This document shows positions 728 to 5,444 of a DNA stretch of 23,011 bases, piece by piece (the first letter of the stretch is position 1; every line of letters starts with the position of its first letter). The notes beneath the pieces are model-generated. The model saw only the letters and a program-made list of their open reading frames with translations, was not told the origin of the DNA and searched no databases. The DNA comes from a virus, in UHGV virus genome UHGV-0356582; one strand, 5' to 3'. The translations under genes were made by a program, and so were the position numbers.

Positions 728-1014
728 CTGGAAAAGAAATCATCCTGGAATATCTGAAAACTCATGAACAATTCTCCCCACATGAATTAGCTCTGATCAC
801 CGGAATACCAAATAACAGAATCGCTCAAGCAGCAAGGCATATGGTGAAACAAGGGCATTTGAGTGTTGTTGAGCGTAAGTGGAAGACGGTTATTTATGCG
901 AAACGCAAAGTGAAGAAGGAGCCAATTAAAAGAAATCCAGATGGTACGGGGTGGGGATGTGCAAATCCAATGACGGCGTTTATTAATAGGGCGCTTATGG
1001 AGGTAAGGCAATGA
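724..1014 (+). CDS. hypothetical protein, 96 aa, possible winged-helix DNA-binding fold; occupies the ren-equivalent position
   Basis: GTG start overlaps the dnaC-like stop (GTGA). AGGAG at 713-717. Basic C-terminal half. No confident family assignment. Confidence 0.5.
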   Translation: MTGKEIILEYLKTHEQFSPHELALITGIPNNRIAQAARHMVKQGHLSVVERKWKTVIYAKRKVKKEPIKRNPDGTGWGCANPMTAFINRALMEVRQ

Positions 1015-1280
1015 ATAAAAAACAATTAGCCATTCTCGAAAAGGCATGGGATGCACAAATATCATGCGCTTTGAAAGAACAGGCACTACCAATAATCCAG
1101 ACCAAATCGAAAATAGCCAGGCAGTTATGCGATGACGGATTCCTGAACGAAGTTGAGATTACGCGCCAGATGGTAACGTTCAAAGGGTATGAGATAAATC
1201 ATCATGGTATAGCGGCGTATTGCTCCCACCTTCCTGATGACGTTGACATTGATGAAATGGAAAGGGAGATGAAGCAATGA
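1011..1280 (+). CDS. hypothetical protein, 89 aa
   Basis: ATG overlaps the previous stop (ATGA), suggesting translational coupling. GGAGG at 998-1002. No recognisable motif. Confidence 0.5.
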   Translation: MNKKQLAILEKAWDAQISCALKEQALPIIQTKSKIARQLCDDGFLNEVEITRQMVTFKGYEINHHGIAAYCSHLPDDVDIDEMEREMKQ

Positions 1281-1305
1281 CCATCTACATCACTGAGCTA
1301 ATAAC

Positions 1306-1337
1306 AGGCCTGCTGGTAATCGCAGGCCTTTTTATTT
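1306..1337 (+). terminator. intrinsic terminator upstream of ninB (tR2-like position)
   Basis: Perfect 8-bp stem AGGCCTGC (1306-1313) / GCAGGCCT (1322-1329), 8-nt loop, followed by TTTTATTT. Confidence 0.6.
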
Positions 1338-1353
1338 GGGGGAGAGGGAAGTC

Positions 1354-1770
1354 ATGAAAAAACTAACCTTTGAAATTCGATCCCCAGAACATCAGCAAAA
1401 CGCTATTCACGCGGTACAGCAAATTCTTCCAGACCCAACCAAACCAATCGTAGTAACCATTCAGGAACGCAACCGCAGCATTCGGCAAAATGCACGCCTT
1501 CACGCGATGCTATCTGAAATAAGTAAGAAGGCTACATATCATGGAAAAGCAAGAAATATTGAGTTTTGGAAGGGGTTATTCGTTTCTGGTTGGCAGATTG
1601 CAACCAACCAGCACCCTGAGATTATATCAGGGTTAGAAGGTGAGCTAATAAACATCAGAGAGAGTACGGCGACTCTATCTGTAAAAAAAATATCCGAAAT
1701 AATGGACTACATAGAAGCATATTGTGCCATGAACTCAATTCATCTTAGCGAATGGAGGAATTATGATTGA
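1354..1770 (+). CDS. ninB: NinB-family recombination protein; N-terminal ~50 codons lambda-type, remainder divergent and AT-rich (chimeric)
   Basis: MKKLTFEIRSPEHQQNAIHAVQQILPDPTKPIVVTIQERNRS matches my recollection of lambda NinB almost exactly. GGGAGAGGGAAG RBS before the ATG at 1354. The ORF-track start at 1336 lies inside the terminator T-tract and is unlikely. Confidence 0.85.
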   Translation: MKKLTFEIRSPEHQQNAIHAVQQILPDPTKPIVVTIQERNRSIRQNARLHAMLSEISKKATYHGKARNIEFWKGLFVSGWQIATNQHPEIISGLEGELINIRESTATLSVKKISEIMDYIEAYCAMNSIHLSEWRNYD

Positions 1771-2365
1771 GGTTTGGGTAGATATCGAAGGAATTCCATT
1801 TTATCAGGTTAGCAATAAAGGAAATTTCAGGTCTATTACGAGGGAAATTACAGTAACATCAACCAGACAGAGGCCATATAAGAAAATAATTAATGGCACT
1901 AGCGTAAAACCATTCAAGTGCAAGTCGACAGGATATCTTCAAATAAAGGTATACGGTAAGAAATACAGCGCCCACAGGATAGTTGCGAAAGCATTCTGTA
2001 CAGGGTTCTGTGATGGCTTGGTAGTTAATCACAAAAATGGGCAAAGAGATGACAATAGGGCTGAAAACCTTGAATGGGTATCACATTCTGAAAACTCAAA
2101 GCACGGATATAAACAAAATGGAAGAATACCTATATCGCTAGGTAAATTTAGTGGTGATCATCCTGCCAGTAAAGCTGTTATTTCTACTGACATGAAAACT
2201 GGGGAGGAGGTTTATTATGAAGCAGCTATGGATGCTGTCAGAGAAGGATTTGATAGTTCGTCAATTAGTCGTTGCTGTAATGGCGAAAGCTCATATCACA
2301 AAGGAAGATTCTGGCGATTTGCAAATGAAACAATGAAAGCGCGATGGGGAGACAGGGCGGCATGA
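1763..2365 (+). CDS. HNH homing endonuclease (NUMOD4-like N-terminus plus HNH_3-like motif)
   Basis: [17 protein letters not shown] (NUMOD4-like) and [28 protein letters not shown] (His/Asn HNH motif). AT-rich coding sequence. Start overlaps the ninB stop and stop overlaps the ninE start. Confidence 0.85.
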
Positions 2366-2544
2366 GACGACAGCGACGAAGTATCACCGACATCATCTGC
2401 GAAAACTGCAAATACCTTCCAACGAAACGCTCCAGAAATAAACGCAAGCCAATCCCGAAAGAATCTGACGTAAAAACCTTCAACTACACGGCTCACCTGT
2501 GGGATATCCGGTGGCTTAGAGAACGTGCGAGGAAAACAAGGTGA
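2362..2544 (+). CDS. ninE: NinE-family protein, 60 aa
   Basis: [52 protein letters not shown]... matches my recollection of lambda NinE. True start is the ATG at 2362 (ATGA overlap), not the ORF-track start at 2344. Confidence 0.8.
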
Positions 2545-2711
2545 TTGACCCAAATCGAAGTTACGAACAACAAAGCGTAGAGCGGGCTTTAACGTGCGCT
2601 AACTGCGGTCAGAAGCTGCATGTGCTGGAAGTTCACGTGTGTGAGCACTGCTGCGCAGAACTGATGAGCGATCCGAATAGCTCAATGTACGAGGAAGAAG
2701 ACGATGAGTGA
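2541..2711 (+). CDS. ninF: NinF-family small Cys-rich protein, 56 aa, GTG start
   Basis: Not in the ORF track (under 60 aa). Translation [57 protein letters not shown] matches my recollection of lambda/P22 NinF. GTGA overlap with the ninE stop. Confidence 0.7.
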
Positions 2712-2973
2712 TTTCTCTGAGCTTATTTCCTTCAGAAAAGACAGAGAAGAAATGCGGACTGAATCTGTCTATTACGTTCAACACCGGAATAAACGCTCGG
2801 TGCTTGATCAGGAGTTGGTTATTACCGGAGACCTGGCATTCAGAACATATAAGGCCAGCATGGAAATGAAGGATTTCCCTAAATGTGGTTCTGAAAGAGA
2901 AGCAGCGTTAAAGCTGGCAGAGTGGATGCAGAGAATGGCTGCTGCAATTGAGAATTACTGGAGCGAACCATAA
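2704..2973 (+). CDS. hypothetical nin-region protein, 89 aa
   Basis: ATG overlaps the ninF 3' end and its TAA overlaps the ninG ATG (TAATG). I do not recognise the sequence; it sits between ninF and ninG, which are adjacent in lambda as I recall it. Confidence 0.55.
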
Positions 2974-3584
2974 TGGCTAAACCAGCGCGAAGACGATGTA
3001 AAAACGATGAATGTCGGGAATGGTTTCACCCTGCATTCGCTAATCAGTGGTGGTGCTCTCCAGAGTGTGGAACCAAGATAGCACTCGAACGACGAAGCAA
3101 AGAACGCGAAAAAGCGGAAAAAGCAGCAGAGAAGAAACGACGACGAGAGGAGCAGAAACAGAAAGATAAAATTAAGATTCGAAAACTCGCTTTAAAGCCC
3201 CGCAGTTACTGGATTAAACAAGCCCAACAAGCCGTAAACGCCTTCATCAGAGAAAGAGACCGCGACTTACCATGTATCTCGTGCGGAACGCTCACGTCTG
3301 CTCAGTGGGATGCCGGACATTACCGGACAACTGCTGCGGCGCCTCAACTCCGATTTGATGAACGCAATATTCACAAGCAATGCGTGGTGTGCAACCAGCA
3401 CAAAAGCGGAAATCTCGTTCCGTATCGCGTCGAACTGATTAGCCGCATCGGGCAGGAAGCAGTAGACGAAATCGAATCAAACCATAACCGCCATCGCTGG
3501 ACTATCGAAGAGTGCAAGGCGATCAAGGCAGAGTACCAACAGAAACTCAAAGACCTGCGAAATAGCAGAAGTGAGGCCGCATGA
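2973..3584 (+). CDS. ninG: NinG/Rap recombination-associated structure-specific endonuclease
   Basis: [41 protein letters not shown]... near-identical to lambda NinG as I recall it. Two Cys clusters, lysine/glutamate-rich linker. Confidence 0.95.
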
Positions 3585-3787
3585 CGTTCTCAGTAAAAAC
3601 CATTCCAGACATGCTTGTTGAAGCATACGGAAACCAGACAGAAGTGGCACGCAGACTGAAATGTAGTCGCGGCACGGTAAGAAAATACGTTGATGATAAA
3701 GACGGGAAAATGCACGCCATCGTCAACGACGTTCTCATGGTTCATCGCGGATGGAGTGAAAGAGATGCGCTATTACGAAAGAATTGA
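3581..3787 (+). CDS. ninH: NinH, small HTH (Fis-like) protein
   Basis: [37 protein letters not shown]... matches lambda NinH. ATGA overlap with ninG. Confidence 0.9.
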
Positions 3788-4436
3788 TGGCAGCAAATAC
3801 CGAAATATTTGGGTAGTTGGCGATCTGCACGGATGCTACACGAACCTGATGAAAAAACTGGAGACGATAGGATTCGACACCAAAAAAGACCTGCTTATCT
3901 CGGTGGGCGATTTGGTTGATCGCGGTACAGAGAACGTCGAATGCCTGGAATTAATCACATTCCCCTGGTTCAGAGCTGTACGTGGAAACCATGAGCAAAT
4001 GATGATTGATGGCTTATCAGAGCGCGGAAACGTCAATCACTGGATGCTTAATGGCGGTGGCTGGTTCTTTAATCTCGATTACGACAAAGAAATTCTGGCT
4101 AAAGCTCTTGCCCATAAAGCAGATGAACTTCCGTTAATCATCGAACTGGTGAGCAAAGATAAAAAATATGTCATCTGCCACGCCGATTATCCTTGTGACG
4201 AATACGAGTTTGGAAAGCCAGTTGATCATCAGCAGGTAATCTGGAACCGCGAACGAATCAGCAACTCACAAGACGGGATCGTAAAAGAAATCAAAGGAGC
4301 GGACACGTTCATCTTTGGTCATACGCCAGCAGTGAAACCACTCAAATTTGCCAACCAGATGTATATCGATACCGGCGCAGTGTTCTGCGGAAACCTCACA
4401 TTGATTCAGGTACAGGGAGAAGGCGCGTGGGCATAA
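3765..4436 (+). CDS. ninI: NinI serine/threonine protein phosphatase (lambda PPase family, calcineurin-like metallophosphatase)
   Basis: [24 protein letters not shown]...GDLVDRG...GNHE... metallophosphatase motifs, near-identical to lambda PPase. Start taken at ATG 3765 rather than the track's 3690, to match the known N-terminus. Confidence 0.9.
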
Positions 4437-4945
4437 GAGAACTAAACCTAACCAAAGAACAGCATGAGTGGCTGAATGGCTGGCTTGAACTGTGGGGCGC
4501 ATGGGTTTATTCAGGTCGTCTGGAAAAGCGCATGATCAGCGTAATAGCGAAGTTCATGGAGAGCGTAGAGCCGGGAAGAGTTATGACAAGGCCAATGTGT
4601 AATGATGATGATGGAATGTTGATTTCTCAGGTCGTCGATTCCGTCATGTACATTGACAAGAAAGCCTTTGGCATCCTCCTCAGCTACTACGCTCATGGTT
4701 CATCAAAGCGAGCAATTGCATCCTACTATCACGCGACTGCAAAGCCACGCAAGATGTGTGGACGTGGTGGCGAGGGATGGAGAAAACCTTCACTGGCAAC
4801 CTGTAGAAACGAAATTGACGACATCCTGAAATCGTCGTTATTTGTTTTGTACCAACCAATGCAAAATGCTTTCAAAATGCGTAAACGTGTTGAGAAAGTT
4901 AAGCATGTTGCTGTTAAAAGCCTTGACATGCAATTAGCCATTTAG
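4427..4945 (+). CDS. putative late-gene antiterminator Q (assigned mainly by position; not the lambda Q sequence type)
   Basis: GTG start with GGGAGAAGG RBS, overlapping the ninI stop. Lies between ninI and the lysis cassette where Q always sits. A candidate late promoter overlaps its 3' end. I cannot confirm the family by sequence recall. Confidence 0.5.
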
Positions 4946-4952
4946 CCATAAT
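4923..4952 (+). promoter_or_regulatory. candidate late promoter (PR'-like): -35 TTGACA, 18-nt spacer, -10 CATAAT
   Basis: TTGACA at 4923-4928 and CATAAT at 4947-4952. Located at the 3' end of the putative Q gene, as in phage 21/82-type late regulatory regions. Confidence 0.4.
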
Positions 4953-4962
4953 TAGAGGGTAA

Positions 4963-5004
4963 GCTGCCGTTAGTGACTCTTAAGTTGCAACGGTGGCTTT
5001 TTTT
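4963..5004 (+). terminator. candidate intrinsic terminator downstream of the late promoter (tR'-like)
   Basis: Imperfect 9-bp stem (4963-4971 pairing with 4989-4997, two G-U pairs) followed by T7 at 4998-5004. Confidence 0.4.
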
Positions 5005-5444
5005 GTTTGCACAACAGGTAAGAGCATTGAACCCGCAGACCTCGCGGAATTGGTGAAAGGTGCCGCGCAGTGCTCTTATCGTTGTGGTGAATGCACAGGC
5101 TGATGTGTAAGGGCAAGAATCTTTCGCTGGATTCGGTGTGGCCACGTAGCCCGCTGTAGGCAGTTGCAGCAAACCGGAGATCAGCACCGGTCGCCACAAT
5201 CCAAACTGAGCCGTAGCCACTGGCTATCCTGAATTCATCAGTGATAGTTACGCTGCGGCCTTCTACACATGACCTTCGTGAAAGCGGGTGGCAAGAGGCT
5301 GCGCTAACAACCTCATGCCGTTTTGCTCGTGCATATCGGTCACGAACAAATCTGATTACTAAACACAGTAGCCTGGATTTGTTCTATCAGTAATCGACCT
5401 TATTCCTAATTAAATAGAGCAAATCCCCTTATTGTGGGTAAGAC

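Follow-up and report, generated by a model that had tools for sequence, protein, structure and literature searches.

A free-standing HNH endonuclease gene behind a chimeric ninB in the nin region of lambdoid prophages

How did a nuclease gene come to lie in the nin region of a lambdoid prophage, directly behind a ninB gene whose two parts differ in origin? The question is raised by a stretch of 23,011 nucleotides (nt) from UHGV virus genome UHGV-0356582, here called the window, to which all positions refer unless another locus is named. NinB is a single-stranded DNA-binding protein and acts as a recombination mediator of the Orf type. In the window, the beginning of its gene is of the type found in phage lambda, the remainder belongs to another NinB clade, and an open reading frame (ORF) for an HNH endonuclease follows in an overlapping position. 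We consider it probable that this ORF encodes a free-standing I-HmuI-like homing endonuclease that has spread together with a linked, presumably cleavage-resistant segment of ninB. In this explanation cleavage, its target and biased inheritance are what we infer.

The composite structure of ninB (1354..1770, plus strand, 138 amino acids (aa)) is apparent from BLASTN comparison with lambda. Identity was 198/203 over positions 1277..1479 (plus strand), which cover the ninA/tR2 region and ninB codons 1-42, end with the letters ...AACCGCAGC and provide homology for a crossover on the left. No lambda match was found for 1480-2334, and identity returned at 2335-2365 (29/31, E=3e-09). The left junction is therefore located at 1479/1480, after codon 42 (IQERNRS), and codons 43-138 are of the other clade. 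An earlier note on this DNA, made from the letters alone, had described a lambda-type ninB of about 50 codons running through IQERNRS and an abrupt break at about 1500. The abrupt change and the motif hold, but the lambda-type part is 42 codons long and the break lies some 20 nt further to the left. The chimera itself, also recognized in that note, still encodes a full-length NinB domain, with a score of 138.8 bits (1.2e-40) for Pfam NinB (PF05772) and coverage of 2-129 of the 131 profile positions. Residues R41, Q45, N46 and H50 are all present in the protein. The importance of the NinB channel residues Arg41, Gln45, Asn46 and Trp/His50 has been described earlier (PMC4118853).

The foreign 3' part of ninB (1480..1770, plus strand) has 37-40% protein identity to the lambda type and carries its native stop. 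Since its likeness to the replaced lambda segment is confined to the protein level, it is presumed to resist the nuclease. It ends in ...SEWRNYD, and the C-terminus typical of the clade is ...R-x-Y-[DE], each directly before the stop codon. We also considered whether the ...RNYD ending was produced by insertion of the nuclease gene between Trp137 and Lys138, and rejected this because relatives without an HNH gene have endings of the same kind (FTDRRYD, KDWRKYDMYS). A run of eight adenines in the foreign part (A8, 1683..1690, plus strand) is prone to frameshifts. Two IMG/VR contigs (L043, L045) have A7, which truncates NinB at ...SVKKYPK, while the HNH ORF remains intact; the difference may reflect either true decay or a sequencing error in the homopolymer.

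Between the two regions of lambda identity lies a replacement block of 855 bp (1480..2334, plus strand), delimited by BLASTN and by comparison with insert-free loci, where lambda-type ninB has 284 bp. Its GC content of 0.388 is the lowest among all 855-nt intervals in the 23 kb (mean 0.489, standard deviation 0.032), and that of the replaced lambda-type segment is 0.52-0.53. At third codon positions, GC is 0.316 in the HNH ORF versus 0.541 in ninE. The fall in GC reported earlier, from roughly 50% to roughly 33%, is thus real but milder, because the left flank itself reaches only 0.43. No internal promoters above chance were detected in the block. When positions 1000-3000 were searched against Rfam for a group I intron or another RNA family, no intron family appeared at E<=1; the sole match, Trp_leader on the tR2 hairpin (23.6 bits, gathering score 41), is probably due to chance.

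The HNH ORF (1763..2365, plus strand, 200 aa) overlaps the ninB stop by 8 nt in a separate reading frame, its ATG lying within the sequence TATGAxTGA at that stop. It has its own start signals: a GGAGGA Shine-Dalgarno sequence, read directly from the DNA, is found within the last ninB codons (1754..1759, plus strand), 3 nt ahead of the ATG at 1763. Pfam searches identified NUMOD4 at aa 3-63 (51.2 bits, gathering cut-off 23.4) and HNH_3 at aa 69-112 (45.0 bits, cut-off 24.8). Residues 55-186 align with residues 36-170 of the 174 residues of I-HmuI (PDB 1U3E, E=4.7e-14). For the I-HmuI-like C-terminal DNA-binding region (aa 145-186), the Pfam I-HmuI_NUMOD-like helix-turn-helix domain scored 19.3 bits, below its cut-off of 27, while the 1U3E alignment extends to residue 170/174. 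His90 (codon 2030-2032, plus strand), Asn98 and Asn111 (codon 2093-2095) correspond to His75, Asn83 and Asn96 of I-HmuI, and the residues of the catalytic motif are invariant in six orthologues with 54-78% identity. Among relatives, the proportion of nonsynonymous differences (pN) in the HNH gene is 0.13-0.30, with a saturated proportion of synonymous differences (pS). Neither ninB nor the HNH ORF has a Pfam match to DUF968, and the two are separate ORFs instead of one Orf-HNH polypeptide. A single-sequence AlphaFold model had a predicted local distance difference test score (pLDDT) of 34 and was not used.

Whereas I-HmuI stops four residues past the aligned FRY motif, the window protein continues with ...FWRFANETM and then KARWGDRAA. 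These last nine codons encode residues 138-146 of lambda NinB in their native frame. Together with the stop they form a left-over ninB 3' end (2335..2365, plus strand) that is identical to lambda at 29/31 positions and to the insert-free locus L098 at 30/31. The HNH stop codon TGA (2363-2365) overlaps the ATG of ninE (2362) as ATGA, and the same junction is annotated in L098. Thus the reading of the earlier note was borne out for most of this gene: the ORF behind ninB overlaps the ninB stop and has NUMOD4 and HNH domains above the gathering scores, the catalytic His and metal-binding Asn are kept, the C-terminal residues derive from NinB at the DNA level, and the stop meets ninE exactly as a ninB stop does.

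The 31-nt tail is likely the right homology arm of the block. Single-nucleotide polymorphisms in it, at 2352-2353 and 2358, travel with the downstream gene in both block-bearing and block-free alleles. Since these lie in the last 14 nt, some right-hand crossovers must have occurred within the first ~17 nt of the tail. Endings that resemble the 12-residue end of lambda NinB were also seen in other HNH ORFs at the ninB site, namely DWARRFGETKRAA in L006 and EWASRFGDKQRAAA in L007, and further in L011 (KQWIGYSGDKNRSAA), L013 (VMRWAQQHNRSSAA) and L228 (TFGDGRRVA). This likeness is suggestive only, because NinC and nin ORFs without HNH domains share the ...AA ending with GCNGCATGA, and because the tail codons also encode the ribosome-binding site of the next gene. 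The need to encode this site and the ATGA overlap could yield G-[DE]-x-x-R-A-A by convergence. For the same reason we rejected the ...AA endings of the HNH ORFs in SEN22, L008 and L010 as remnants of NinB: the GCNGCATGA junction is general among nin genes and occurs in lambda NinC and in a non-HNH ORF in L057. A tblastn search with the 24-aa tail peptide gave no match. As a separate observation, lambda NinC (L003, 2440-2454) ends in ...REAA, and many nin genes end in ...AA with GCNGCATGA over the next start. Recombination throughout the nin region could use this shared junction as a short boundary.

Loci without the insert allowed a direct comparison, and a related prophage lacking it, of the kind the earlier note had in mind, was indeed found. 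The prophage of E. coli VG38-53E1 (L098) has the same order of a small ORF, ninB, ninE and ninF, with a 284-bp lambda-type interior where the window has the 855-bp block. Its identity to the window is 97.4% over 1011-1479 and 94.2% over 2335-2714, giving presence and absence at one site between the same neighbors. A second empty background consists of a ninB 5' allele of the Shiga toxin (Stx) phage 86 type with a lambda-type interior, present in eight genomes. The block is a presence/absence polymorphism in at least two backgrounds. Phage vB_EcoP-720R6 was rejected as an empty site, since its NinB belongs to another clade and its nin region is also different.

The block is not particular to the window. 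Among 5426 complete E. coli genomes, 77 carry it (80 places), always complete and 98.8-100% identical; the lambda-type interior was found at 1570 places in 1368 genomes. The foreign NinB part was present at >=99% identity in 63 phage records, including Stx phages 86, P27 and Lahn2 and the P22-like APC_JM3.2, and at 85% in Salmonella phage SEN22 (two records), with the next best phage match at 44%. An HNH gene follows it in every phage record that was annotated or of which the locus was fetched. Insertion as an event in the window prophage, as proposed in the earlier note, is contradicted by the occurrence of the same 855-bp block in the 77 E. coli genomes and 63 phage records. On its left, the block abuts 16 flank haplotypes with three classes of ninB 5' allele: the lambda type, the Stx86 type, which diverges ~62 nt from the junction, and the type of L044, which diverges ~15-20 nt from it. 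On its right, ninE, dam and ninC-like genes are among at least five downstream contexts. Partial copies were not found in the 77 block-bearing genomes. Their absence is expected, since the two ninB interiors share similarity in protein only (37-40%), give no BLASTN alignment and should therefore offer no internal homology. In SEN22, the block is ~20% diverged in DNA according to the alignment, with protein identities of 85% for NinB and 78% for HNH, and it joins a lambda-type 5' ninB with few differences from the window at the same position. The 3' part has therefore stayed with the nuclease gene through repeated exchange of the 5' part. A scan of genome contigs found two loci only, and a viral-contig scan with lambda NinB returned identical proteins only, showing no diversity in the tail.

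A search of a large protein collection identified the source of the foreign ninB part as a naturally occurring NinB clade that shows the motifs ...HAMLS...FWKGLFVSGWQIA...EIVPGLEGEFINIRESTA... and is present in Salmonella, Yersinia, Pantoea, Mixta and metagenomes. The N-termini of its full-length members do not resemble that of lambda NinB. In eight of the nine contigs that were looked up, an overlapping HNH ORF directly follows ninB. A linkage survey of 80 IMG/VR loci plus the other loci found an HNH ORF, intact or disrupted, at every locus where NinB is >60% identical to that of the window; L049 and L050 (59-60%) and more distant loci have no HNH gene. The two proteins diverge in parallel, with identities for HNH of 78, 72, 67, 64 and 55% against 85, 78, 71, 67 and 60% for the NinB C-terminal part. 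For ninB and HNH together, pS is 0.74-0.97 (saturated) and pN 0.07-0.30, which indicates that both genes are under purifying selection. The incoming ninB sequence is therefore foreign, as the earlier note held, but it is not just a co-converted flank: it is part of a natural clade in which HNH follows in nearly every close member and diverges along with it. The anatomy of a free-standing homing endonuclease gene accompanied by ninB sequence was sustained by Pfam, by BLASTN against lambda and by 1U3E; that the ninB sequence came merely as converted flank, in the window prophage itself, was not.

On the other hand, the nuclease is not bound to this NinB clade. HNH proteins 57-60% identical to that of the window follow Orf-family genes with C-terminal parts only 28-44% identical, in a YbcN-like group (L210-L219) and in L222. 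HNH proteins with 62-68% identity follow a 149-aa DUF1367 gene that occupies the ninB slot (L205, L207, and L208 at 2044-3085), behind which L207 has a ninE-like ORF and L208 a small ORF similar to it. Compared with the Pfam profile of 198 positions the DUF1367 gene is short, and hence its 3' part may likewise have been replaced. None of the HNH relatives below ~45% identity has a NinB neighbor. Since HNH is more conserved than the upstream neighbor, the nuclease gene has moved between genes in this position; the lineage is tied to the ninB slot and has moved between unrelated occupants. In L006 (3410-3958), L007 (3410-3961) and L046, exactly this position behind the same NinB clade is taken by an HNH_3 plus AP2 gene lacking NUMOD4. 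In L044 another HNH_3-AP2 gene lies immediately upstream of ninB (~2700-2945), giving a ninB that is flanked by nucleases on both sides and combines a third 5' type with the same block. We further observed that the ~20 C-terminal residues past AP2 in L006, L007 and L046 resemble a NinB tail (...QAIDWARRFGETKRAA before the stop). Some copies of the nuclease gene are disrupted. In L032, on the same contig as L204, a 1196-bp IS5-family element (3550-4745; DDE_Tnp_1, DUF772) splits the HNH ORF with a 4-bp duplication equivalent to window positions ~1899-1902. In a Mixta prophage (L012/L015, ~3780-4512) the HNH ORF is truncated after 123 aa, and ~440 nt downstream there is a gene encoding an IS1 transposase domain.

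These features can be combined in the following scheme. A phage or prophage that carries the unit would meet one with a lambda-type ninB, and the nuclease would nick or cut the lambda-type allele, presumably in or near the 284-bp segment that is replaced. The break would be repaired from the unit-bearing allele by break-induced gene conversion. Crossovers would resolve only in the conserved 5' end of ninB, up to 1479, and in or beyond the 31-nt tail. Because the interiors are alike only in protein, such limits would explain transfer of the whole block with the same sharp ends. The foreign ninB segment would provide a working NinB without the target. The start of the HNH ORF inside ninB codons and the read-through of the tail to ATGA would keep translation of ninB, nuclease and ninE coupled, so that the cost to the phage should be low, and, whatever gene lies downstream, the retained tail may supply a short right homology arm.

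Several observations weigh against homing. Lambdoid phages swap modules at gene boundaries without any nuclease. For the right junction (2334/2335) no convincing microhomology and no frame-consistent explanation of its origin were found. One metal ligand is conservatively changed, with Asp74 of I-HmuI replaced by Asn89 in the window protein. The block is a minority allele, at ~5% of the E. coli ninB loci bearing either type, unlike what strong drive would produce. Moreover, a useful partnership would account just as well for the tight and deep linkage, the co-divergence, the stop/start overlaps at both ends and the purifying selection on the HNH gene beyond saturation of synonymous sites. In such a partnership, the main rival to homing, the foreign-clade NinB and the HNH protein would be a co-adapted two-gene recombination module spread by ordinary mosaic transfer, with the nuclease making nicks or ends and NinB loading the recombinase. 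The presence of HNH at every locus with NinB >60%, the parallel divergence and the selection on both genes agree with this. So do NinB/Orf-HNH (DUF968) fusions in Gram-positive phages, which have been read as collaboration (PMC2034487, PMC4118853), and the related HNH genes that adjoin the sak recombination gene in lactococcal phages. We nevertheless regard the partnership as unlikely. Lambda-type NinB and the clade relatives L049, L050 and L014 function without an HNH gene, two unrelated HNH architectures occur at the site, and the HNH lineage is also found after DUF1367 genes and after Orf genes with 28% identity. Furthermore, there are copies with an intact HNH gene and a frameshifted ninB as well as the converse, and the DUF968 proteins contain a different HNH type that Pfam does not find here. 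A more specific possibility, to which we give a rather low probability, is a 'cut-and-load' starter: the nuclease would nick the DNA of a related phage and NinB would load RecA or Red-beta, with the NinB tail being functional as a contact for DNA or a partner or as a 31-nt homology arm. If this were true, the module would actively generate the mosaicism of the nin region in lambdoid phages, Stx phages included.

The nuclease could also be a passenger or a spent gene in plain mosaicism, with exchange at the stretch encoding VVTIQERNRS and at the GCNGCATGA gene junction. That this junction, with its ...AA ending, is general in the nin region (lambda NinC, non-HNH ORFs), that the tail polymorphisms follow the downstream gene with or without the block, and that the block is at low frequency would all be expected. 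We think this improbable: a spent gene should decay, but almost every copy has an intact HNH ORF, the catalytic motif is invariant and pN lies far under the saturated pS. In addition, the block is 98.8-100% identical over unrelated backbones, and two nuclease families converge on one site. A very improbable alternative, in our judgment, is a weapon in competition, in which the nuclease damages co-infecting or resident lambda-type phages to the benefit of the carrier and gene conversion is only a by-product. The architecture and the logic of the target are the same as for homing. Interference of a phage intron endonuclease with a competing phage has been shown (PMC11620839). Prophages of the Stx and P22-like kinds, in which the block occurs, often reside in the same hosts as other lambdoid prophages, and up to ten matching places per genome were found. 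However, no sequence feature separates such a weapon from homing.

The surroundings of the block are those of a replication, nin and late region in a P22-like (Lederbergvirus-type) E. coli prophage. The gene order is an IstB/DnaC-like ATPase, two small ORFs, a tR2-like terminator, ninB, the HNH ORF, ninE, ninF, ninG, ninH, a phosphatase and Q. The tR2-like intrinsic terminator (1306-1339), with the letters AGGCCTGC...GCAGGCCT and then a T-run, is located a short distance ahead of ninB, as in lambda. The ninE gene (2362..2544, plus strand) matches Pfam NinE at 4.5e-43 from the Met at 2362, the ATG of which overlaps the HNH stop. ARAGORN found no tRNA genes anywhere in the 23-kb window, including positions 4945-5300. 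The related phage vB_EcoP-720R6 has tRNA-Asn and tRNA-Thr directly after Q. In other lambdoid nin regions (L256, 1697-1990, Shigella phage 75/02; L004, 3530-3811, SEN22), a gene of 93-97 aa annotated as HNH endonuclease is located just before rusA. This small gene appears unrelated to the I-HmuI-like gene.

The HNH gene is already widely annotated as 'HNH endonuclease' or 'NUMOD4 domain-containing protein', and it does not represent a new kind of system. Full-text searches yielded no published account of the chimeric ninB or its captured tail, nor of homing in the nin region of lambdoid phages. Provided that the nuclease is active, the locus would be a clean natural case in which temperate lambdoid phages undergo intronless homing with all-or-none co-conversion; it is found both in Stx-converting phages and in P22-like prophages of E. 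coli and Salmonella. In that case a nuclease gene would also shape a mosaic boundary inside a recombination gene. Its seat in the stop/start overlaps of the nin genes, together with the borrowed end of the neighboring gene, suggests a route by which such a gene may lower its cost. With insert-free and insert-bearing alleles in hand, homing is directly testable by lambda genetics.

The closest known enzyme is I-HmuI, an HNH nicking homing endonuclease of Bacillus phage SPO1 (PDB 1U3E), with which the window protein aligns over the HNH_3 core and the C-terminal DNA-binding region and shares the His/Asn positions. It differs by an N-terminal NUMOD4, the Asn in place of Asp74 and nine additional C-terminal residues derived from NinB. 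Furthermore, the I-HmuI gene sits in a group I intron, whereas the window gene is free-standing, with no intron found in Rfam. In this respect the locus resembles SegF, SegG and MobE of phage T4, which act in intronless homing, with co-conversion or marker exclusion. These genes are likewise free-standing beside a conserved phage gene, and in their case too a divergent, presumably resistant neighboring segment travels along, producing a chimeric neighbor gene and a presence/absence polymorphism. Unlike the T4 cases, the window gene resides in a temperate lambdoid host instead of a T-even phage, is not of the GIY-YIG type of the Seg enzymes and is fused in-frame to a remnant of the neighbor gene; its activity is predicted from sequence. 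The Orf/NinB-HNH DUF968 fusions of Gram-positive phages (PMC2034487, PMC4118853) also bring together a NinB-family DNA-binding protein and an HNH nuclease, but they are zinc-finger fusions, whereas the window has two ORFs in different frames and a nuclease of the I-HmuI/HNH_3 type. Finally, the cases in ICP1 and other phages (Barth et al., 2023, PMC10448857) concern another phage group, other nuclease families and islands >10 kb instead of a single 855-bp block. As in the window, they place a homing-type nuclease gene exactly at a recombination boundary beside a conserved gene.

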